Origin: Candidatus Niyogibacteria bacterium
Lineage (GTDB): Bacteria; Patescibacteriota; Minisyncoccia; HO2-45-28
Assembly: GCA_016181935.1 (NCBI GenBank)
Contig: JACOYI010000005.1
Coordinates: forward strand, 595 to 64,594
DNA length: 64,000 nucleotides
Reading direction: 5' to 3'
In this document: piece after piece, positions 4,271-57,157 of the stretch
Numbering within the stretch: the first letter of the stretch is position 1
How the letters are laid out: every line of letters begins with the position of its first letter
Made by a program: the position numbers and the translations under genes
Notes under the pieces: generated by a model
The model's database searches: none
Seen by the model: only the letters and a program-made list of their open reading frames with translations
What the model was told of the DNA's origin: nothing

Positions 4271-5248
4271 ATGCCAAAAATTTTCATCACGCGGCGGATT
4301 CCGGAAGCGGGAATTCAAAAATTACAGGCAAAAGGATATGAGGTCGTTATCAGTCCCGAAGACCGGGTGCTTCGGAAAGAGGAAGTGCTCGAAGCGCTCC
4401 AAGGCCAGAATTACGATGCGGTGCTCTGTTTGCTGACGGATAAGATCGACGGCGACATATTGGACGCGGCCGGAAAACAATGCAAGATTTTCGCGAATTT
4501 GGCGGTCGGGTTCGATAACGTCGATTTGAAGGCCGCCGAGGAGCGGAGGATCGCGATCACAAATACGCCCGGCGTACTCACGAATACCGTAGCGGAACAT
4601 ACATTTGCGCTGATGCTTGCCATTGCGCACCGCGTTTGCGAAGCGGACCGATTTACGCGCGGCGGGCATTATGAAGGATGGGCGCCGATGCTTCTTTTGG
4701 GGAACGATCTTTCGGGGAAGACCATCGGCATCGTCGGGTTGGGGCGCATCGGTTCGCGCGTCGCATATCACGCGGTCAAGGGATTCGATGCAAAAGTGAT
4801 CTATTATGATGTAGCGAGAAACGAAGAGTTCGAAAAAGAGTACGGCGCGATTTACAAAGCAAACGTAGAGGATGTGCTTCACGAAGCGGATTTTGTTTCG
4901 ATTCACGTGCCGTTGTTGGATTCCACGCGGCATTTGATGAATGCGGAGCGGTTCCGGATGATGAAGCCAACGGCGTATCTGGTCAATACCTCCCGAGGCC
5001 CGATCGTGGATGAAGCGGCGCTCGTGAAAGCGCTCAAATCAGGCGTCATCCGCGGCGCTGCGCTTGACGTGTTTGAAAATGAACCCGCGCTCGCGTCTGG
5101 GCTTGTAGAATGTGAGAATGTGATTTTAACCCCTCATATTGCGTCTGCCACCGAAGAGACGCGCTCTGCCATGGCCGAACTGGCGGCCGATAACATCATC
5201 GCGGCGCTCGAAGGCCAAGCCCCGCCAAATCTAGTGAAGAAGAAATGA
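4271..5248 (+). CDS. D-isomer-specific 2-hydroxyacid dehydrogenase (glyoxylate/hydroxypyruvate reductase-like)
   Basis: 325 aa. NAD-binding GxGxxG (GIVGLGRIGSRVA) and catalytic R/E/H region typical of the GyaR/PGDH family. Confidence 0.85.
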   Translation: MPKIFITRRIPEAGIQKLQAKGYEVVISPEDRVLRKEEVLEALQGQNYDAVLCLLTDKIDGDILDAAGKQCKIFANLAVGFDNVDLKAAEERRIAITNTPGVLTNTVAEHTFALMLAIAHRVCEADRFTRGGHYEGWAPMLLLGNDLSGKTIGIVGLGRIGSRVAYHAVKGFDAKVIYYDVARNEEFEKEYGAIYKANVEDVLHEADFVSIHVPLLDSTRHLMNAERFRMMKPTAYLVNTSRGPIVDEAALVKALKSGVIRGAALDVFENEPALASGLVECENVILTPHIASATEETRSAMAELAADNIIAALEGQAPPNLVKKK

Positions 5249-5760: not shown

Positions 5761-6420
5761 ATGATAGCGCTTACAGCAAAACCCCGTGAATTGACCGGAA
5801 AGCGGGCGGGCGCTCTGCGGACACAGGGCTTGGTTCCGGCTGTTGTCTATGGAGCAAAAATGCCGTCCGAACCGCTCACGGTTGATATGCGCGAGTTCGA
5901 AAAAGTATGGCGGGAAGCGGGGGAGGCGGGCCTTGTGGAACTCGCGGTCGGCGATTCCAAGAAAAACGTACTCATTAAGGACGTTCAGCGCGATCCGCTC
6001 AAGGATACGCCGGTGCATGTGGATTTTTATGCGGTTCAAATGGATAAACCGATCCGCGCAATGGTAAGCGTGAGATTTTCGGGTGATGCGCCCGCCGTAA
6101 AACAAGGGGCGATCCTAATGAAGATCATTCATGAGCTCGAAGTGGAAGCGCTTCCGGCGAATTTGCCGCGCGAACTCGAGGTGGATATTTCGAAACTGGC
6201 CGCGAGCGGCGAGCGCTTTTTGATCTCCGATTTAACATTGCCGGCCGGTGTCACCGTGATCGCCGATCCCGCCGATATCATTGCGCTCACGGAAGAGCCG
6301 AAGGCCGAGGAAGAGATTGCGGCTGAAGCGGCCCCCGGCATCTCGGATATCGAGGTGGTGGGCGAGAAAGGCAAGAAAGAGGAAGCAGTCACGGAGGAGG
6401 GAGCAGTCGAAAAAGAGTAA
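5761..6420 (+). CDS. rplY: 50S ribosomal protein L25 / general stress protein Ctc
   Basis: 219 aa. L25 fold residues (GxxP.VVYG, VHVDF) plus an acidic C-terminal tail as in the Ctc form. Confidence 0.85.
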   Translation: MIALTAKPRELTGKRAGALRTQGLVPAVVYGAKMPSEPLTVDMREFEKVWREAGEAGLVELAVGDSKKNVLIKDVQRDPLKDTPVHVDFYAVQMDKPIRAMVSVRFSGDAPAVKQGAILMKIIHELEVEALPANLPRELEVDISKLAASGERFLISDLTLPAGVTVIADPADIIALTEEPKAEEEIAAEAAPGISDIEVVGEKGKKEEAVTEEGAVEKE

Positions 6421-6439: not shown

Positions 6440-7756
6440 ATGCGTATTTTACCGATCATCGGTGTCGGTTTCGCAATGGGCTTTTTTATTTTTGCCGTTT
6501 TTGTCGCGCGGGCGCAAACCGTGGATCCGGCGCTGGTGGGCGAGCGCAAAGCCGCGCTCGAAAAAGAGCTTGCGGGATACGAAGTTCAGATCGACGCATT
6601 CCGGCAGCAGATCGACGCCAAACGATTGGAGGCCGCAAGTTTTGAGCGCGACATTGCGATCTTGAACGCCGAGATCAAGAAAGCGCAGCTTGCCATCAAG
6701 GCGCGGACCATCGCGATCGAGCAATTATCGGACACGATCGGGGAAAAATCCGATTTCGTGGACGAATTGCTCGTAAAGATCGATCGCGAAAAAAAATCGC
6801 TCGCGGAACTCCTGCGCCGCGTGGAAGAATTGGACCGCACATCATTTGCGGAAGCGTTTTTTTCGCGCGAATCCATCGCCGGATTTTTTAAGGAATTGGA
6901 TCATTATGACACGGTGCAGGCGGCGGTTCACACGTCATTTTTGGAGATCCGGAAAACCCGAGTAGCGACCGAGGAGGAGATCGATACGCTCGAAACCCGC
7001 AAATCGGAAGAGATCGAGCTTCGCGCGCTTCAAACACTCGAAAAAAAACGCGTTGAAGAAAAGGAATCCGAGAAAAAAAAGATCCTCGCGGTCACTAAAG
7101 GCGTTGAAGCCGAATATCAAAAATTGCTGAAGTCGCGCGAAAAAGATGCGGCGCTTATTCGAAGCCAGCTCTTTTTATTGCGCGGTTCGCCGGATATTCC
7201 GTTCGAAAAGGCGGTGGAGTATGCGAATGCCGCATTCAAAGCCACGGGGGTGCGCCCCGCGTTTTTACTCGGTGTGATCGCGGAAGAGTCGAATCTGGGT
7301 GCCAATGTCGGCACGGGGAACTGGAATATCGACATGGCGGATCGCCGGTGCGCATCGCAACGCACGGCATTTCAGGAGATCACCGCTGAACTGGGATTCG
7401 ATCCGAATCTGATGCCGGTTTCCAAAAAGGCGTGGTACGGCTATTGCGGGGGCGCCATGGGGCCCGCGCAATTCATGCCGACCACATGGAAGTTATACAA
7501 AAATTTGATCGCAAAGCATACCGGCCACAACCCGCCCAATCCTTGGGAGGCGCTCGATGCATTCGTGGCGTCGGCGCTTCTGTTGAAAGATAACGGCGCG
7601 GCGGAGGGGACCTATGCAGCTGAGCGCCGCGCGGCGCTCCGGTATTTGGCAGGCGCGAACTGGCAGAAGCGCTCATATGCTTTTTACGGCGACGATGTAA
7701 TGGCGCTTGCCGCCAAGTATCAGGACCAGATGAACATCATTCTGGCGGGGCAGTAG
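6440..7756 (+). CDS. Membrane-anchored coiled-coil protein with C-terminal lytic murein transglycosylase (MltB/Slt-like) domain
   Basis: ATG at 6440; the listed ORF start at 6281 overlaps rplY and is rejected. N-terminal TM, about 250-aa heptad-rich region, then AEESNLG ... [10 protein letters not shown] transglycosylase motifs. Confidence 0.7.
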
Positions 7757-8477
7757 TTTTTGAGAATGCTTTCACGATGGGGTCGAGATCGCCCGCCATG
7801 ATGCGTTCGATCGCGTGCCACGATTTTTTGATGCGGTGGTCGGTGACGCGATCCTGCGTAAAATTGTACGTGCGGATCTTTTCCGAACGGTCCTGCGTGC
7901 CGATCTGTTCCCGGCGCACGGCGGCGACGGAATCTACGGCTTTTTCCTGATGCGCCTCCATAAGTTTGGAGCGCAAGATATCAAGGGCGCGTTCGCGGTT
8001 CCGGGCTTGAGAGCGTTCGCTTTGGGAACGCACGACGAGGCCCGTGGGTTTATGTGTGATGCGCACGGCGGTTTCGACTTTATTGACGTTTTGTCCGCCC
8101 GCGCCGCCGGAGCGCGAAAAACTGACCTCAATATCCTGGGGCCGGATTTCGAGCGCTTGGGGCGGATAGATCGGGAGCACGGCCACCGATGCGGTCGACG
8201 TATGCACGCGGCCCGATTTTTCGGTATCCGGGATGCGCTGGACCCGGTGAACGCCCGCTTCTTGTTTTAATGTCGGGTACGCATCCGGATTCGCGACCTC
8301 GATCGTGATTTCCTTGTAACCGCCGAGGTCCGAGACCGACGAATCGATCGCGGTCGCTTTCCAGCCTTTGCGGCTCGCGTATTTCATATACATCGATGCG
8401 AGGTCGCGCGCAAAAAGCGACGCTTCGGCGCCGCCAGCGCCCGCGCGGATCTCAAGAAAAATGCTTTGCGGCTGCAT
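7737..8477 (-). CDS. prfA: Peptide chain release factor 1-like protein lacking N-terminal domain 1 (246 aa)
   Basis: Starts [16 protein letters not shown] immediately after the rpmE stop. Has the PxT-type codon-recognition loop (RIPDTE) and GGQ ([16 protein letters not shown]). There is no coding room for the usual first 100 or so residues. Confidence 0.7.
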
Positions 8478-36825: not shown

Positions 36826-37935
36826 ATGAAAAGTCAAGATGTGCCGAAAGTATTCGTCGCCCTGTCGGGTGGCGTGGATAGCTCCGTGGCGGCCGCTCTG
36901 TTGCGAGAGCGGGGATTTGATGTGGTCGGCGCGCATATGAAGTGCTGGATTCCGGGAGCCGAAAACTGGGGGCTGGAAGCTGGAAATTGTGGAGCGGAAC
37001 GTGATGCGGAGGATGCGCGCCGTGTCGCCGAGGCGCTCGATATCCCGTTTTATGTATTCGATTTGGAGAAGGAATACCGCGAGCGCGTGTTTGATTATAT
37101 GCTCCGCGAATATGGAGCGGGCCGTACGCCGAATCCCGATGTGCTTTGCAATAGCGAGATCAAATTCGGCGTTTTTTTGGAGAAAGCGCTCTCGCTTGGC
37201 GCGGACTATATTGCGACGGGGCATTACGCTAGAAAAAAGCTGGAAGCTGGAAGCTGGAAGCTGGAAATTGCAAAAGATTTAAACAAAGATCAATCCTATT
37301 TTCTGTGGCGTCTTACGCAGGATCAGTTAAGCCGTACGATATTTCCCATCGGTGAATATACCAAACCCGAGGTGCGGGAACTTGCGCGAAAATACCATTT
37401 GCCGACCGCGGAAAAAAGGGATTCGCAGGGGCTTTGCTTTGTGGGGCATCTCGATTTTCACGATTATTTGCGAAGCGTATTGCCCAAGAAAACGGGCGAC
37501 GTGGTGACGACCTCCGGCAAAAAAGTGGGGGAGCATGACGGCGCGCATTTTTATACCATTGGCCAGCGGCATGGGCTCGGCATCGGCGGCGGGACGCCGT
37601 ATTATGTGGCGGCAAAAAACCTCGAAGCGAACACGCTGACGGTTGCGGAAGGCATCCATGATCCCGAATTATATGTAAAAGAAATTCATGTTGTGGATGT
37701 GAATTGGCTCTCCGGCACTGCACCTTCCAGCCTCCAGTCCCCAGCCTCCGACCTCCAGTATGACGCTCGCATCCGCTACCGCCAGCCGCTTCAAAGGTGC
37801 CACATCCAATCACTTGGAAACTCGGTTTCCAAGTTGCGGGTTGTGTTTGATGCGCCTCAGCGCGCGGCGACATCCGGCCAGTCCGCGGTGTTTTACAAAG
37901 GCGGCGAACTTTTGGGCGGGGGAATCATCGCTTGA
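36826..37935 (+). CDS. mnmA: tRNA-specific 2-thiouridylase MnmA, with three in-frame heptamer-repeat insertions
   Basis: PP-loop SGGVDSS, catalytic Cys contexts. (AGCTGGA)n / (CYTCCAG)n tracts at 36970-36987, 37238-37268 and 37723-37758 encode extra LEAG../SSLQSPAS.. segments. Confidence 0.85.
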   Translation: MKSQDVPKVFVALSGGVDSSVAAALLRERGFDVVGAHMKCWIPGAENWGLEAGNCGAERDAEDARRVAEALDIPFYVFDLEKEYRERVFDYMLREYGAGRTPNPDVLCNSEIKFGVFLEKALSLGADYIATGHYARKKLEAGSWKLEIAKDLNKDQSYFLWRLTQDQLSRTIFPIGEYTKPEVRELARKYHLPTAEKRDSQGLCFVGHLDFHDYLRSVLPKKTGDVVTTSGKKVGEHDGAHFYTIGQRHGLGIGGGTPYYVAAKNLEANTLTVAEGIHDPELYVKEIHVVDVNWLSGTAPSSLQSPASDLQYDARIRYRQPLQRCHIQSLGNSVSKLRVVFDAPQRAATSGQSAVFYKGGELLGGGIIA

Positions 37936-38004
37936 CATCGTTGAGATTTCGTCATACGATTTCTTCAGTTTTCCGAACCTTCACAACCCTCACAGGAGAA
38001 AGCC

Positions 38005-38606
38005 ATGCGCATGGCACGATGGTTTGCTCTCGCCGCAGTTGCCGCGTTTTCGGGCTTCATCGTCAACGGGTGTTCGGTTTCAAAGCCGGAAAAGCCGCGG
38101 GCACCACAAGCGATGGAATACGGCTATCTCCCGCCGATTACCATGCGAAGCCGATTTATGAGCAGGTACAAACTCTGTATCGTTTTTTCCCGGAACTTGA
38201 TACGAATCAAGGGTTCATGCCCTATGCGTACAAGATTCCCGAGGGCGCCGAAGGGCTTTTCGCCATCCCGCAATGGCAAGCAATTGCCCCAACCTACAAT
38301 GAAGCGGTGGAGAAGGTATTCGCCGCTCTTGCGAGCCAGAGGACGTTCCACAATTGGCTCGAAGGCCGCCTCAGTTCCGAATATCTGCGAAGAACACAGC
38401 GCACGATCGACATGTGGGAGAAGCTCGAAAAGGAACAGCGGGTGCACGACATTGTGCTCGTTCCCGCCCAATTCGGGTTCCGCCATCGCGGAAAATCCGT
38501 CCTGCAAGCCCGCGCCTCGTTCGCCGAGAACGAGTTCGGCCTTGGCGCTTACGAAATCGGCATCATGCTCCTGACACATCCGGAGCGACTTCAGGGCTCT
38601 AGTTAT
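38005..38606 (+). pseudogene. Lipoprotein gene, 5' part: frameshifted around 38100-38150 and truncated by transposon insertion at 38607
   Basis: Lipobox signal MRMARWFALAAVAAFSGFIVNGC in frame 1. Convincing protein continues in frame 0 (DGIRLSPADYHAKPIYEQ...GSSY). The reading frame resumes after the transposon at 41552. Confidence 0.5.
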
Positions 38607-38631
38607 GGCGACTATACCTTGAGAGCAGAAT

Positions 38632-39231
38632 CTAGTAAATATAGGTTGTAATGCTTGCTTCTGCAATTTCTTTCATGTGCTCAAAAAGTTCATTTTCCTG
38701 CCATGCGTTTTCTCTGAAAAACATTGATACGGGAGCGTATCCTTCTTTCTTGTGTATAAAAATACGATTCAATGGATAAAATTCATTCATCGTGATAACT
38801 CGATCTCGAATGGATGAACCCTCTGCAAAATCATCGCCCCATCCGAAGCAAACGAATGGCGTGATTTTTTCATATTGAAGTGTGGCTCGGATACCGATAA
38901 GATTTTTTCCCAATCGTTCAATCGCATTTCCTTGCGATTGCTTTTTTAAGCCCTCGGCGATTCGCTTCTTGTTCGTGCCCTGATGTTTCATCTCAACCGC
39001 AAGTGCGATTCTTCGATAGTTTTCATCGTCTTTTTTTCGTAATACCAAAATGCCGCCGTCCGGTTTTATGTAAGAGTCCTCTTTTGAGAGCGGAGAAAAC
39101 TCCGCCCGCTTGTCATATCCTTTGATAATTCCGATCAGTTCCGACAATTTGATGGATTTTACATATTCGAGATAGTAGCCAAGATTCGCAAGGTTAAAAC
39201 GGGTATTGAGATGCTCAATGACCCTTTTCAT
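38632..39231 (-). CDS. Putative Type II restriction endonuclease (PD-(D/E)xK)
   Basis: IKPDGGILVL...EMKHQG fits PD...ExK. Immediately downstream of, and co-directional with, the methyltransferase. Start taken at the internal ATG (MKRVIEHLN). Confidence 0.5.
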   Translation of the reverse strand: MKRVIEHLNTRFNLANLGYYLEYVKSIKLSELIGIIKGYDKRAEFSPLSKEDSYIKPDGGILVLRKKDDENYRRIALAVEMKHQGTNKKRIAEGLKKQSQGNAIERLGKNLIGIRATLQYEKITPFVCFGWGDDFAEGSSIRDRVITMNEFYPLNRIFIHKKEGYAPVSMFFRENAWQENELFEHMKEIAEASITTYIY

Positions 39232-39274
39232 CACCGCCGAAACCTTTTTGTCATCGCCCTTGGAAAGGACGTTT

Positions 39275-39952
39275 TTAGGCAAATGCTGGCTTTTGTTTCG
39301 GCGCAAGAAGTCGCTGTTGCTCATTATGGATATTTTTTACGAAATAATGGCCGCCCAGTTTTGGGATGTTGAAAATCAATACCTCGCTATGAAAGAGGAT
39401 GTTTTCAAAAACATCTTTTGGAAGCGATACGATGCTCGTAATGGGCGGATATTCTTCGTTGATAAATTTCACCCAGCGTTTGCTGTTTTCCGTCTGATTG
39501 AGGCGGAAGCCGTAAGGCGTGAACATCACGATGGGGACTTCACTGCCAAACAATTTCACTGCCTTTGCGAACCACACTTCGGGGAGCAAAGGACGACCGC
39601 CATAATGCTCTTTGATATACTGCTTTGTTTTCGAGTCAATGTTAAAAGGCGGATTCATAATGACGAGCGATATTTTTTCTTTTATCTCGTCCTTTTGAAT
39701 TTCCAAATAATTTTTAACTTTCGTGTTTGGAAAACCCTGATGTTCAATATCAATGCCCATTACTGCATAGCCGTCTTTTTTCCACGGCTTCAAAAGAGAA
39801 CCTTCTCCCACGCACGGATCAATGACGATTCCATCCGATTTTTTGATGTGCGGATGAATCAGATCGTAAAGAAATTCGCTTACATAATCGGGAGTGAAAA
39901 TCGTTGCTTTTTTCTCGTTTTTATAGAAATTGTTCCGATCTACCCGATACAT
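39275..39952 (-). CDS. N6-adenine DNA methyltransferase (gamma-class, NPPF motif)
   Basis: ATG 39952 (MYRVDRNNF); the listed start 39979 is a TTG. Motif I VIDPCVGEGSLL and motif IV VIMNPPFN. Confidence 0.8.
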   Translation of the reverse strand: MYRVDRNNFYKNEKKATIFTPDYVSEFLYDLIHPHIKKSDGIVIDPCVGEGSLLKPWKKDGYAVMGIDIEHQGFPNTKVKNYLEIQKDEIKEKISLVIMNPPFNIDSKTKQYIKEHYGGRPLLPEVWFAKAVKLFGSEVPIVMFTPYGFRLNQTENSKRWVKFINEEYPPITSIVSLPKDVFENILFHSEVLIFNIPKLGGHYFVKNIHNEQQRLLAPKQKPAFA

Positions 39953-40068
39953 AACTAAATAATGACATAGAAAGGGCAACCTGAATACTCGCCCTCAAAG
40001 GAGATGGGGATAAGTCAAAAAAGATGCTATTGTTGAGATAATGCAACGCAAGGACTTCCAATCCATCA

Positions 40069-40944
40069 TCAAACGGGCATCACAGCCCGTCCGAGAATGG
40101 AAGAAAACATCGGGCGCGAAACCAGACGCTGATTCCAGCGATACACGAATTCGTCCACATAACGCTGGAGATACTTCGGGGATACGGCATGGTGCGTCCC
40201 GTCCAGCGACCGCTTGAGTTGCGACCAAAAGCCCTCGATGGTGTTTGTATGTATTTTGCCACGCACATACTCCTTGATGCCGTGTTGGATGGTCTCGTGG
40301 CTGTATCCGTTTGAGCCGACCCGATTGTAGGATTTGAACTCGTCTGTAAAGATTATGCTTTGTTTGCGGACGGATTGCTGGATGATGGGCATGATGGTTT
40401 TACTTTTTACATTCTCAACAACTCGCGCTTTCACATTTCCTTTGCGGGATGCGATACCGAATACGGGCGTTTTGTGTTCTGCCCCGCGTCCGCGCTTGTT
40501 GTGCTTGCCCTTACCGCCGACATAGGTTTCATCCGCTTCCACCTCGCCGTAAAATTTGATGTTATTCTGCTCAAAGAGAAGCCGGATTTGCTGACCCATC
40601 CGCCACGCGCATTTATAGGTCATGCCGAGTTGCCGTTCCAATTCTTTCGCCGCGACACCATTCCGGCTTGAAGCGAACAAGAAGATAGCCCAGAACCAAT
40701 CTTTTAAGGATGTGTCCGATTTGTGGAAGATTGTGCCCGCGAGCGGATGGACGCTAAATCCGCATTGGCAATCGTATCGCTTGCGTCCGGCAATCCGGTG
40801 GAACTTTCCGCGCTTCTTGCACGATGGACAGGCATACCGCTTGCCATAGCGATTCAAAAAGATAGAATGAAGGCAGGCCTCATTGGTCGGGTAATCCCTT
40901 TCGAAATCCTTGCGCGTGTATTTTTTCATACCCCATCCTATCAA
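40069..40944 (-). CDS. IS1595-family (ISXO2-like) DDE transposase
   Basis: 291 aa. N-terminal zinc ribbon (CPSCKK..C), then a DDE core with DETYVGG, TDEFKSY and a C-terminal ISXO2-type region (VNRF). Confidence 0.85.
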   Translation of the reverse strand: MIGWGMKKYTRKDFERDYPTNEACLHSIFLNRYGKRYACPSCKKRGKFHRIAGRKRYDCQCGFSVHPLAGTIFHKSDTSLKDWFWAIFLFASSRNGVAAKELERQLGMTYKCAWRMGQQIRLLFEQNNIKFYGEVEADETYVGGKGKHNKRGRGAEHKTPVFGIASRKGNVKARVVENVKSKTIMPIIQQSVRKQSIIFTDEFKSYNRVGSNGYSHETIQHGIKEYVRGKIHTNTIEGFWSQLKRSLDGTHHAVSPKYLQRYVDEFVYRWNQRLVSRPMFSSILGRAVMPV

Positions 40945-41007
40945 AAGGAATACCTGCTGTCAAGGGATAAAATTATCAAGCAATAGATAGTAGTTTCTGT
41001 CAAAAGT

Positions 41008-41241
41008 ATGGTAGACGAGACAAATCCACAAGAAGATCAATTCGAACTAATTTTCAAAAATGGTGCTCTTGCTAACCTAAAAAAATTGGCGGGGAAATTA
41101 AACATTTCTGAAGAAAATTTAGGAGAAGCAGTAAATAAGAGTATTAAGATACTCTCGATCATAAAAAATGTTCGCACAAAAACCATTACTTTAGAAACCG
41201 AAGACAAGCAACGCTTTGTGCTGGATGCCGATGAGATATGA
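41008..41241 (+). CDS. Hypothetical small protein (77 aa) on the transposon
   Basis: AT-rich ORF, translationally coupled (ATGA) to the next ORF. Confidence 0.35.
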   Translation: MVDETNPQEDQFELIFKNGALANLKKLAGKLNISEENLGEAVNKSIKILSIIKNVRTKTITLETEDKQRFVLDADEI

Positions 41242-41519
41242 ACAAGAAATCTACGCAGACGCTCGAACTCGCTCCGGATACAAATTTACCGCCAGCAGAG
41301 GGCAGAGCAAATAAAAGAGAGGGAACGAGAAGTCAAATTGCGCTGTATTATGTTTTAGGATTTTTGATTCTTATATTACTCGCCCTAATCCTTTCTTTCG
41401 CATATAGATTAACGATCAATGATTTAAGAGATACGCTTCTCGCATTATCTGGTATCCTTTCCGGTCCGCTCGGTTTTATCATCGGTTATTATTTCAAATC
41501 ATATTCCGATCGAGAGTAA
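41238..41519 (+). CDS. Hypothetical small membrane protein (93 aa) on the transposon
   Basis: Two hydrophobic helices (ALYYVLGFLILILLALILSFAY; GILSGPLGFIIGYYF). Confidence 0.35.
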   Translation: MNKKSTQTLELAPDTNLPPAEGRANKREGTRSQIALYYVLGFLILILLALILSFAYRLTINDLRDTLLALSGILSGPLGFIIGYYFKSYSDRE

Positions 41520-41551
41520 TTCTGCCTTCAAGGTATAGTCGCCCTAGTTAT

Positions 41552-41750
41552 TTCACAATCAATGCCGCGGGCGATGAATACTCGTCTAACGCCGATGGCG
41601 ACTTCTCGCACGCGCCGCTCTTCCGCTTCGTCGACGGCAAGGTCGAGTTCAACGCCCACTGGTACGACATTGCCAACGGGCACTATGGCTCCGCGTCCGC
41701 CTTCTTCCCCGAACTTCACGGTTTTTCGAATCCCTGATTTCTGAGTCCGT
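41552..41750 (+). pseudogene. 3' remnant of the transposon-disrupted lipoprotein gene
   Basis: No start codon. Frame continues ...SSY|FTINAAGDEYSSNADGDFSHAPLFRFVDGKVEFNAHWYDIANGHYGSASAFFPELHGFSNP* exactly from the target-site duplication. Confidence 0.5.
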
Positions 41751-55026: not shown

Positions 55027-55226
55027 CGCTTTCGCATAACCACTTTTTCAACACTGCTCCGATGCTTGAAAATGATAGTCGTTTTGCGCGCGAAATCTTA
55101 ACGCGGTTCCCGTTCCTCCCTTCGGGATTTTCCGACCGCTAATTTCGCTTCAAAACTCCTTCATTTTCAAAGCATCTCCGCAAAGTTTCAAAAGTGGCTA
55201 TGCTTCAGCTCTTGGGAGATAAAAAT

Positions 55227-55547
55227 ATGGCAATAACACTGAATAAGCACGATAAAAAAATTGTTGATAGAGTAAGGGCGACCATTGAAGCTGCTTATAA
55301 ATCAGCAAATTTTCCATCCGCAGTGGCAAAAAGCATTGCGAGTAGGGCGACCTATTTTAGAAACAAAGGTCGTTCGCAAGCGATACGACGGCATCCATTT
55401 GAAGGCATTTGCGAAGCACACAAGAAACCATTGAAGAGGATAGATGCGCATTTGGATGAGATGGGTCCATTGGGATACGATGGACCAGTTAGATGGATTT
55501 GTCCGCTTGCGAATAATAGCGGTAAGAGATCTTGTGGAGAATTTTAA
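55227..55547 (+). CDS. Hypothetical protein on the AT-rich dnaK-dnaJ insert
   Basis: ATG 55227 preceded by GGGAGA. Basic, Cys-containing C-terminus (WICPLANNSGKRSCGEF). Low confidence. Confidence 0.3.
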   Translation: MAITLNKHDKKIVDRVRATIEAAYKSANFPSAVAKSIASRATYFRNKGRSQAIRRHPFEGICEAHKKPLKRIDAHLDEMGPLGYDGPVRWICPLANNSGKRSCGEF

Positions 55548-55548
55548 A

Positions 55549-55600
55549 TGAAAGATTACTACAAAATTTTGGGGGTAGGGGGATTGATTCAAAGTTTATC
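55549..55600 (+). other. Duplicated, truncated dnaJ 5' end (MKDYYKILGVGGLIQSLS*)
   Basis: ATGAAAGATTACTACAAAATTTTGGGGG is 23/25 identical to the true dnaJ start at 56087-56114. Marks the left junction of an insertion. Confidence 0.5.
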
Positions 55601-55620
55601 TTAAGGTAAACTTAGAACAT

Positions 55621-55845
55621 ATGAAAAACATCGTAGGATTGAAGGAATTGCGGGGGAATATCGAGAACTATATTTCCGAGGTGAAGAAGGGAAAGTCGTT
55701 CATCGTAGTGCGCCGGTCAAAGCCGGTGCTTAGGATTTCCTCGCCGGACGAGGATGAATCCATGTGGGAGACCGTGATTGATTTTACGAAGATCCGGAAG
55801 GGCGGTATTCCGGTGGATGAATTGCTGAAACGTTTGAGGGCATGA
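55621..55845 (+). CDS. Type II antitoxin, Phd/YefM-like
   Basis: 74 aa. Overlaps the downstream toxin by 4 nt. LRGNIENYISEVKKGKSFIVVRRSKPV pattern of Phd/YefM antitoxins. Confidence 0.55.
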   Translation: MKNIVGLKELRGNIENYISEVKKGKSFIVVRRSKPVLRISSPDEDESMWETVIDFTKIRKGGIPVDELLKRLRA

Positions 55846-56084
55846 TGGATTCGATTGATAAGGAGTTTGCCCGATTGACTGAAAAGGAGAAAAAGCACGT
55901 CAGGGCAATTTTTGTCCAGCTGAAGGAGGGCGATCAGAGGGGATTGAATGTTAAAAAAATAAAAGGCCGTGAGGATGTGTTTCGTGTGCGGAAGGGCAAG
56001 CTAAGGGTTATTTATCAATTACAGGACAAAACGGTTCATATTTTAGCGATTCGATATCGGCGAGAAGATACCTATAAATTTTAA
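55842..56084 (+). CDS. Type II toxin, RelE/ParE family
   Basis: 80 aa. VFRVRKGKLRVIYQLQDKTVHILAIRYRREDTY matches the RelE/ParE C-terminal signature. Confidence 0.7.
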   Translation: MMDSIDKEFARLTEKEKKHVRAIFVQLKEGDQRGLNVKKIKGREDVFRVRKGKLRVIYQLQDKTVHILAIRYRREDTYKF

Positions 56085-56086
56085 CT

Positions 56087-57157
56087 GTGAAAGACTACTA
56101 CAAAATTTTAGGGGTGGAGAAAGGGGCGGGGAAGGAGGAGGTCAAAAGGGCCTACCGGAAATTGGCGCACCAACATCATCCCGATAAAAAAGGAGGGGAT
56201 GAGGCCAAGTTCAAGGAAATCAACGAGGCCTACTATGTGTTGGGTGATGATTCGCGCAGAGCGCAATACGACCAGACCGGCCGCACATCGTTTGGCGGCG
56301 GAGGCGGGCCGCAGAGCGGGTTTGATTTCGAGGACATCTGGCGCCAATTCGGCGGCGCCCAAGGAGGCGCACGGGGCGGTGATTTTGCCGACATCTTCGG
56401 CGATATTTTTGGGTTTGGGGGCGGAGGCCAGCGCCAGAAACGCGGCGCGGATATCGCGGTGGATATCGAGCTTCCGTTCGCGGAAGCGGCATTCGGGACG
56501 AATCGCAAAATTTCACTTCGCAAAACCAATGCCTGCAAAGAGTGCGATGGGAGCGGGGCAAAATCCGGCACCGGAACGGTGCGCTGTGAGATTTGCAATG
56601 GGTCGGGTACGGTGCGCGAGAATCGCCGCTCGATGTTTGGTTCGTTCACGGCGCTCTCCGAGTGTTCCCGCTGTCACGGAAAAGGGGAGATGCCGAAGGA
56701 GCCCTGTCCGCAGTGCCGCGGCGAGGGGATCATGCGAAGCGAGGAAACTATCGAAATCGCGGTTCCCGCGGGCATCGATAACGGCGAGATGATTCGCGTG
56801 ACGGGCGCGGGCGAAGCGGTGGCGGGCGGACGCGCGGGCGACCTGTATGTGCGCATCCATGTGCGGCCCGACCCGCGATTCCATCGCGAGGGAATGAATT
56901 TGATATCGGACGTGGAAATCCCGTTCACGGATGCCGCGCTCGGAACCGAAAAAGTATTGGAGACGCTCGACGGAAAGGTTAAGATGGAAATACCCGCAGG
57001 AACGAATTCGGGCGATATGCTCCGGATCCGTGCTCGCGGCATCCCGAAGGCGCATGGACGCGGGGATCTCTTGATCCGCGTCACGGTCAGGACGCCCAAA
57101 AAATTATCGCGCAAGGCGCGCGAACTGATGGACGAACTGCGCCGAGAGGGGATTTAA
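56087..57157 (+). CDS. dnaJ: Chaperone DnaJ
   Basis: GTG start (the ancestral ATG version survives as the fragment at 55549). J-domain HPD, G/F region, four CxxCxGxG zinc-finger repeats. Confidence 0.9.
   Translation: MKDYYKILGVEKGAGKEEVKRAYRKLAHQHHPDKKGGDEAKFKEINEAYYVLGDDSRRAQYDQTGRTSFGGGGGPQSGFDFEDIWRQFGGAQGGARGGDFADIFGDIFGFGGGGQRQKRGADIAVDIELPFAEAAFGTNRKISLRKTNACKECDGSGAKSGTGTVRCEICNGSGTVRENRRSMFGSFTALSECSRCHGKGEMPKEPCPQCRGEGIMRSEETIEIAVPAGIDNGEMIRVTGAGEAVAGGRAGDLYVRIHVRPDPRFHREGMNLISDVEIPFTDAALGTEKVLETLDGKVKMEIPAGTNSGDMLRIRARGIPKAHGRGDLLIRVTVRTPKKLSRKARELMDELRREGI

Follow-up and report, generated by a model that had tools for sequence, protein, structure and literature searches.

Introduction

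ISfinder lists the passenger-carrying subgroups "ISNwi1+" and "ISPna2+", with lengths of 1.5–4.75 kb. Transporter insertion sequences (tIS) are described as confined to the IS1595 and IS66 families (bioRxiv 10.1101/2021.05.26.445724), and two IS1595 tIS, tISCpe8 and MTnSag1, have 25-bp inverted repeats and 8-bp direct repeats (PMC5704250). Separately, Furuta, Abe and Kobayashi 2010 (PMC2853133) report restriction-modification (RM) systems and solitary M (methyltransferase) genes flanked by insertion sequences (IS), citing the IS1595 family paper, and Furuta et al. (PMC2853133) describe a Type IIP RM unit of X. oryzae with inverted repeats matched at 60/65 positions and an 8-bp duplication. Takahashi et al. 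2011 (PMC3031569) demonstrated in experiments that restriction exerts selection in favour of the IS-mediated joint movement of an RM system. Here we describe an IS1595-type element carrying a complete Type II RM pair in a 64-kb stretch of a Candidatus Niyogibacteria contig (GenBank assembly GCA_016181935.1, contig JACOYI010000005.1, positions 595–64,594, forward strand). We refer to this whole stretch as the window, and all copy and motif counts below apply to it.

Like tISCpe8 and MTnSag1, the window element combines a single IS1595-type DDE transposase with ~25-bp inverted repeats, an 8-bp duplication, and passengers inside the repeats. The passengers of those Firmicutes elements are lincomycin-resistance genes and an oriT; here they are a Type II RM operon and two small genes (orf4–orf5), in a bacterium of the candidate phyla radiation (CPR), and unlike them the window element has a chimeric left end and an internal repeat remnant. 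The X. oryzae unit has no transposase inside, while the window element is autonomous, uniting the transposase, both repeats, and the RM pair; beyond that unit, the comparative data presented here include an element found in two copies (L032/L033) and a clade whose cargo is interchangeable. RM insertion accompanied by a long duplication of the target is another known form, seen here at locus L004 (68-bp direct repeats), from which the window element differs in its 8-bp duplication, terminal inverted repeats, and transposase, i.e., in the marks of classical DDE transposition. The restriction endonuclease (REase) itself matches the Pfam EcoRI family, aligns over PD...ExK and GNAIER, and is ~29% identical to plasmid EcoRI over its full length, but is smaller (230 aa versus 277 for EcoRI), and the partner DNA methyltransferase (MTase) is short as well (225 aa). 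Overall, passenger-carrying IS1595 elements and IS-linked RM systems are already described, and this element is a further example of them; new here are an apparent composite architecture, an internal repeat with a predicted promoter, and the transposition of whole transposase–methyltransferase–endonuclease (T-M-R) units in other genomes.

Element boundaries and insertion site

The element spans 2937 bp (38607–41543) and is, with high probability, a tIS of the IS1595 family that carries an EcoRI-type RM cargo plus orf4–orf5 as one mobile unit. The features of the element and of the interrupted host gene are listed below (open reading frame, ORF; sister elements are treated further on).

38005–38606, plus strand: 5' part of the host gene, a lipoprotein of a conserved CPR family; signal peptide/lipobox frame from 38005, body in the frame of the ORF 37932–38651
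38599–38606, no strand: target-site duplication, copy 1 (CTAGTTAT); present only twice in the window, each time directly next to a repeat
38607–38631, no strand: terminal inverted repeat at the REase end, i.e., the right end in transposase orientation, GGCGACTATACCTTGAGAGCAGAAT; 23/25 versus the other end, related to the right inverted repeat (IRR) of sister elements
38632–39324, minus strand: EcoRI-family Type II restriction endonuclease, 230 aa (PF02963, E=9e-15; profile versus EcoRI structures, E=4e-13)
39275–39952, minus strand: N6-adenine DNA methyltransferase, 225 aa, gamma-type motif order (N6_Mtase; DPCVGEG at 45, NPPF at 100)
39980–39990, minus strand: conserved GAGTATTCAGG motif ~30 bp upstream of the MTase start, common to the stand-alone M-R loci L004, L005, and L008
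40069–40929, minus strand: IS1595-family DDE transposase, 286 aa, with N-terminal Zn ribbon (PF12762, PF12760, NF033547)
40951–40969, minus strand: internal truncated left repeat, TATCCCTTGACAGCAGGTA, terminal GGCGAC missing, ~20 bp upstream of the transposase start
41008–41241, plus strand: orf4, 77 aa, belonging to a small family of ~80-aa proteins
41238–41519, plus strand: orf5, 93 aa, two predicted transmembrane (TM) segments, 4-bp overlap with orf4
41519–41543, no strand: terminal inverted repeat at the orf5 end, reverse complement GGCGACTATACCTTGAAGGCAGAAT; inner part of right-end type (...GGCAGAA...)
41544–41551, no strand: target-site duplication, copy 2 (CTAGTTAT)
41552–41737, plus strand: 3' part of the host gene, FTINAAGDEY...GFSNP, stop at 41735–41737

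The 16-nt sequence GGCGACTATACCTTGA at 38607–38622 has its exact reverse complement at 41528–41543, both unique to these places, and the match runs inward to the 25-bp repeats listed above. In 3.35 kb, a perfect 16-nt inverted pair would be expected by chance ~1e-3 times, and such a pair with an exactly abutting 8-bp direct repeat ~2e-8 times. An earlier note on this DNA, made from the sequence alone, had reported exact 16-bp terminal inverted repeats and the exact 8-bp target-site duplication expected for IS1595, and both were confirmed. All five genes that it placed inside the element are present, with R (the REase gene), M, orf4, and orf5 lying between the terminal repeats together with a single transposase. 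A compound (composite) transposon was ruled out, as a hidden Markov model (HMM) scan found a single transposase ORF in the window and the termini are 25-bp repeats and not IS copies.

Excising the element together with one duplicate copy regenerates a continuous host ORF (...LQGSSYFTINAAGDEY...; reconstructed empty site ...GGCTCTAGTTATTTCACA...), in agreement with the earlier note. The reconstructed protein has >1400 relatives and belongs to a conserved hypothetical CPR family of ~289 aa with no Pfam domain. Intact homologs align without gaps across the junction (...LTHPERLQSFAY-PWIDAPGDEY... versus ...LTHPERLQGSSY-FTINAAGDEY... in the window), which shows that the insertion was precise, and given the perfect duplication and the intact ORFs, a recent date for it is plausible. 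The description of the target as a lipoprotein gene needs a qualification: the closest homologs (P0242/P0243) do open with a lipoprotein signal, MRISRWFAVAMLAVFSGFVINGCS, but the matching window peptide, MRMARWFALAAVAAFSGFIVNGCS (signal peptide MRMARWFALAAVAAFSGFIVNGC), which begins at 38005, is out of frame with the gene body. The frameshift lies at ~38128, between ...MEYGY (38113–38127) and PADYHAKP... (from 38130), and is likewise seen in three other assemblies. These three Logan assemblies (SRR12113420, SRR12113383, and SRR12113430) contain the region at 100% identity, and L001 covers both junctions, so that the locus is not an assembly chimera.

The GC content of the element is 43.4%, versus 54.1% in the rest of the window. 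Not all of its genes are AT-rich as previously stated: R (41.7%), M (40.7%), orf4 (35.0%), and orf5 (39.7%) are, but the transposase is at 51.0%. This heterogeneity between cargo (35–42%) and transposase (51%) suggests a mosaic origin.

Transposase and RM module

The transposase matched both PF12762 (E=2.7e-47, 161 bits, cutoff 27) and the IS1595 model NF033547 (E=1.1e-64, 218 bits, cutoff 75), and its N-terminal Zn ribbon matched PF12760 (26.2 bits, cutoff 25.4), with CPSC...CQC cysteines that are invariant in the clade alignment. D133 (DETY), D196 (TDEF), and E232...K239 (NTIEGFWSQLK), which we take from family knowledge to be the catalytic residues, are present here and invariant in 23 relatives. 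The profile matches, the Zn ribbon, and the duplication length all agree with the IS1595 assignment proposed earlier, and the family traits found at this locus comprise a DDE transposase, a Zn ribbon, a DD(E/N) triad with K/R, an 8-bp duplication, and short imperfect inverted repeats. The transposase start had been placed at a TTG codon (40944); the resulting 291-aa protein has no exact-protein match, the database entry starting at an ATG (286 aa), and the ATG at 40929, which corresponds to the start of the 286-aa relatives, is most likely the correct one. One homolog at 58% identity carries the source name "ISSpo3 transposase", and a metagenome scan with the transposase returned a single close relative.

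Within the element, the genes are ordered T→M→R on the minus strand, with orf4–orf5 divergent on the plus strand. In the REase, PD (88–89)...E111-x-K113 and GNAIER (132–137) are conserved, and a profile of 25 homologs aligns IKPDGG...VEMKHQG onto D91 and E111-A-K113 of EcoRI. Its start had been called at 39231 (199 aa), a version that loses an N-terminus conserved in homologs; the real start is at 39324, 50 bp inside the 3' end of the MTase gene. The M-then-R pairing is kept in >20 loci. With PD...ExK intact in the EcoRI-family REase, and DPCVGEG and NPPF present in the gamma-class N6-adenine MTase, the locus does contain the complete Type II RM pair claimed for it, and both predicted enzymes may be active. 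The MTase has no detectable similarity to solved MTases, and the REase no close relative in plasmid or phage collections. The conserved GNAIER segment hints, weakly, at a recognition site with an AATT core; AATT-core hexamers show no striking depletion in the window.

The GAGTATTCAGG motif upstream of M could serve the RM module as a promoter or operator of its own. We also considered whether a TATCCCCA-like stretch upstream of M is a repeat remnant bounding an M-R cassette, and dropped the idea because the alignment was too weak.

Transposition of T-M-R units in other genomes

Next, we compared 80 genome loci encoding relatives of the REase. An IS1595 ORF was present in six of these (L011, L032–34, L048, and L080), representing five distinct elements, and was always directly upstream, in the order T→M→R and with a near-constant gap; these transposases are only 33–35% identical to that of the window. 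Two copies of a 2558-bp T-M-R unit (L032/L033; 5367–7924 in each) lie 1.3 Mb apart on one contig of an Alphaproteobacteria metagenome-assembled genome (MAG; CBDBHH010000005). They are 99.96% identical and each is bounded by 27-bp repeats, GGGGATTATACGCTTAACTAGCCATTG, with differing 8-bp duplications, ATTTTTTT and AAAATTTA. Since two near-identical copies have different duplications, the T-M-R unit transposes whole. This case, together with sister elements that carry other cargo, supports the earlier suggestion that the RM genes can move with the transposase.

Copies of the same element at lower identity were found in another MAG (L034, 88%) and in a Latescibacterota MAG (L048, 69%). L011 has 22-bp repeats without a matching duplication, and L080 retains only a C-terminal fragment of the transposase. 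In a Peribacteria MAG (L012), an M-R pair is followed 26 bp after the REase stop by a right-end repeat, GGCGACCATCCCTTGA (5200–5215), with no transposase, and preceded by a trpR-like gene and a tRNA-like sequence; this locus appears to be what remains of an immobilised T-M-R element. As a separate observation, the T-M-R unit of L048 (4592–8615) sits between inverted repeats of >70 bp that read like the coding sequence of another transposase, and it may lie nested within a second IS or between copies of one.

The closest M-R pairs, 74–84% identical, come from Saccharibacteria, Nomurabacteria, Myxococcales, and Proteobacteria MAGs. No convincing inverted repeats surround the stand-alone M-R loci L004–L010 and L013–L015. 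The closest of these, L004 from a Saccharibacteria MAG, has 68-bp direct repeats that are 91% identical (6254–6321 and 7697–7764) and no transposase. As transposase lineages only 33–35% identical both carry M-R, the EcoRI-like M-R module may have been recruited repeatedly and independently by IS1595 elements.

Sister elements with interchangeable cargo

The closest relatives of the window transposase are 51–73% identical and share the repeat GGCGACTATCCCTTGA. Their left repeat is near-identical, GGCGACTATCCCTTGACAGCAGGTA, and lies ~48 bp upstream of the start codon. Sisters that could be delimited end in a right repeat that matches and are flanked by a perfect 8-bp duplication, with cargo that differs from one to the next; overall, 8-bp duplications were found in 14 sister or analogous elements. 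Their cargo is as follows.

L108: 2644 bp, duplication TATTTCAT; N6_N4 MTase plus a 245-aa ORF
L111/L112: 3703 bp, duplication TTAAATTA; 842-aa fusion of HSDR_N, N6_Mtase, and Eco57I
L159–161: 3664 bp, duplication AAAATAAT; 850-aa N6_Mtase plus Methylase_S
L145: 3446 bp, duplication TTTTTTTA; N6_N4 MTase, a 217-aa ORF, and two small ORFs
L152: fragment of a C5-MTase
L084 (transposase 70% identical): convergent 612-aa N6 MTase beside the transposase; right end not found, element not delimited
L109/L110, L126, L127, L128, L131, L134, L142, L156/L157, L162, and L165/L166: small ORFs

None of the elements that could be delimited, 16 in all, was a bare IS. Between about a third and a half of the elements carried DNA methyltransferase or RM genes, of four or more unrelated types, a clade-level pattern drawn from ~18 elements gathered opportunistically. 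In L108 and L145, the ORFs accompanying the MTases (245 and 217 aa, respectively) matched no family or Protein Data Bank (PDB) entry; from their position, they are candidate restriction enzymes.

Several sisters (L107, L109/L110, and L126–L155) are located in contigs classified as viral in IMG/VR or containing tail-fibre or T4-like genes, including L145, whose MTase and candidate REase sit in a 105-kb viral contig. Methylase-carrying ISs may thus reach phage genomes as well. The exact 25-nt left inverted repeat (IRL) had no match in viral contigs; seven single 16-mer matches there were set aside, being compatible with chance at that collection size.

Internal repeat remnant and the orf4–orf5 arm

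The internal repeat upstream of the transposase, TATCCCTTGACAGCAGGTA, is identical to bases 7–25 of the IRL in L108, L111, and L112, with close variants in other sisters. It overlaps the best promoter-like site of the region (10/12): a –35 TTGACA (40963–40958), a 17-nt spacer, and a TG-extended –10 TAGGAT ending at 40935, which form the predicted promoter of the transposase. The left repeats of sister elements have the same promoter-like arrangement, which suggests that in this clade the left end doubles as the transposase promoter; such a double role would explain why the remnant was retained. The present left terminus lies ~570 bp beyond the remnant, outside orf4–orf5, and its inner ...GGCAGAA... 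resembles right ends.

From this arrangement, the orf4–orf5 arm would appear to have been added later, making the element composite, an aspect absent from the earlier note. A possible precedent is L167 (1298–1821), in which an IS1595 transposase is followed co-directionally by an orf4 homolog (66%) and an overlapping orf5 homolog (68%), the arrangement that a donor of the arm would be expected to show. Pairs of small genes, one for a membrane protein and one for a small soluble protein, are found repeatedly as cargo at the right end of IS1595 elements, e.g., an unrelated pair in L165 (4930–6538; 79-aa TM protein and 95-aa protein). Neither small gene of the window element could be linked to a described family: orf4 had no match among Pfam, NCBIfam, PADLOC, or PHROG families and orf5 none in family searches. 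The AlphaFold model of orf4 was of moderate quality (pLDDT 72, pTM 0.41) with no significant Foldseek match in the PDB (best E=0.13), and its alignment to an 86-aa ORF of L109 was suggestive at most (hhalign E=2e-4, probability 47%).

Elsewhere in the window, a low-GC (~44%) spacer at 55030–56090 separates a dnaK-like from a dnaJ-like gene and includes a Cys/His-rich 117-aa ORF (55194–55547).

Discussion

A working scheme consistent with these data would have the transposase expressed from the promoter in the former left terminal repeat and bound to the two outer 25-bp inverted repeats. Everything between them would then move as one 2.9-kb unit, with an 8-bp staggered cut giving the 8-bp target duplication. 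With M first and the R start within M, methylation could be set up before cleavage begins in a new genome. From established RM biology, post-segregational killing and restriction of unmodified DNA, i.e., phage defence, would favour retention of the element, while the RM system would gain mobility from the transposase. As for its assembly, the right-end arm (orf4–orf5–IRR) of a related IS1595 element may have been joined head-to-head to a T-M-R element, with loss of the final 6 nt from the original left repeat, after which the fused element would have transposed into the lipoprotein gene using two right-end-type outer termini. The 8-bp duplication lies on either side of the outer chimeric ends, and it is therefore these ends that were used in the insertion; around that point, we infer the order in which the parts came together and the selective advantages.

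The same structure could also be left by a dead relic, inserted once as a unit and now an immobile, fixed RM island whose chimeric left end is no longer efficiently used. We consider this unlikely, since all ORFs are full length with catalytic residues intact, the duplication is perfect, the repeats still match at 23/25 positions, and the position of the duplication shows that the outer ends worked at least once. Nevertheless, the relic account would fit the single copy in the window, the shared site of all public contigs with an identical REase, and the second lesion in the host gene, which suggests some age; relics of related elements are also known, one with a single repeat and no transposase (L012), the other with a transposase fragment (L080). 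It is very improbable that the locus records two independent events, in which a plain IS1595 element entered beside or into an existing RM island, or the reverse, with outer repeats and duplication that are coincidental or belong to one component. The uneven GC and the internal remnant could be read in that way, as could the frequent absence of a transposase from loci of this RM family, for which other routes are possible (L004). Yet the host gene is regained only when the whole 2937 bp and one duplicate are removed, at a position where homologs are gapless, and no host DNA separates the modules. The T→M→R order moreover recurs in five other elements, including the two-copy case, sister elements hold their cargo within the repeats, and a build-up of the element that preceded this insertion accounts better for the GC heterogeneity. 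An assembly or binning artefact that joined reads of a different organism into the Niyogibacteria contig is hardly conceivable: the sequence does come from a MAG and the GC of the element is unlike that of its flanks, but the three other Logan assemblies are identical, one of them across both junctions, and mis-assembly would not create two host-gene halves and an 8-bp duplication on either side.

Several observations weigh against parts of the main reading. As regards current mobility and a recent date, no second copy of the element occurs in the window, no second insertion site of the exact element is on record, the other contigs with an identical REase representing the same site, and no empty-site allele is on record either, the best intact homolog being only 62% identical. 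Most of the closest M-R relatives (L004–L010 and L013–L015) are without a transposase, i.e., the RM module is not obligatorily IS-borne; together with the long direct repeats of L004, this indicates more than one route of spread. As regards RM activity and specificity, the window shows no clear avoidance of GAATTC (33 observed versus 45.5 expected). For the composite origin, the termini of L167 were not found in our search and its transposase is only 37% identical, so this locus provides the gene order and not the actual donor, and the duplication is the one observation that suggests the transposase is competent on two right-end-type termini. Taking these points into account, we still favor a single mobile tIS with RM and orf4–orf5 cargo.

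More tentatively, and with somewhat less than even confidence, the window element may belong to a previously uncharacterised clade of IS1595 tIS from CPR/Patescibacteria and from contigs classed as their phages, defined by the left repeat GGCGACTATCCCTTGACAGCAGGTA, which would also serve as the transposase promoter. Members of such a clade would act as a modular shuttle for RM and other small defence or addiction modules and could gain cargo arms by end-to-end fusion, of which the internal repeat remnant would be a record.

The value of this single locus is mainly that of a clean, delimited example and a source of a compact EcoRI-family enzyme pair. It displays, base by base, one route by which an RM system becomes autonomously mobile, namely as cargo in a one-gene transposon, and the comparative data suggest that RM cargo is a recurrent arrangement for IS1595 elements, with a hint that a CPR-associated clade habitually carries RM or methylase cargo. 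REases 77–84% identical to the one described here were found in Saccharibacteria, Myxococcales, and Gamma- and Alphaproteobacteria, and, if the clade pattern is true, these small elements would help explain near-identical RM genes in unrelated phyla. CPR bacteria have tiny genomes and reportedly few CRISPR systems, so that mobile RM systems would be of particular importance to them, and the same elements, where they occur in phage-like contigs, could pass methyltransferases to phages.

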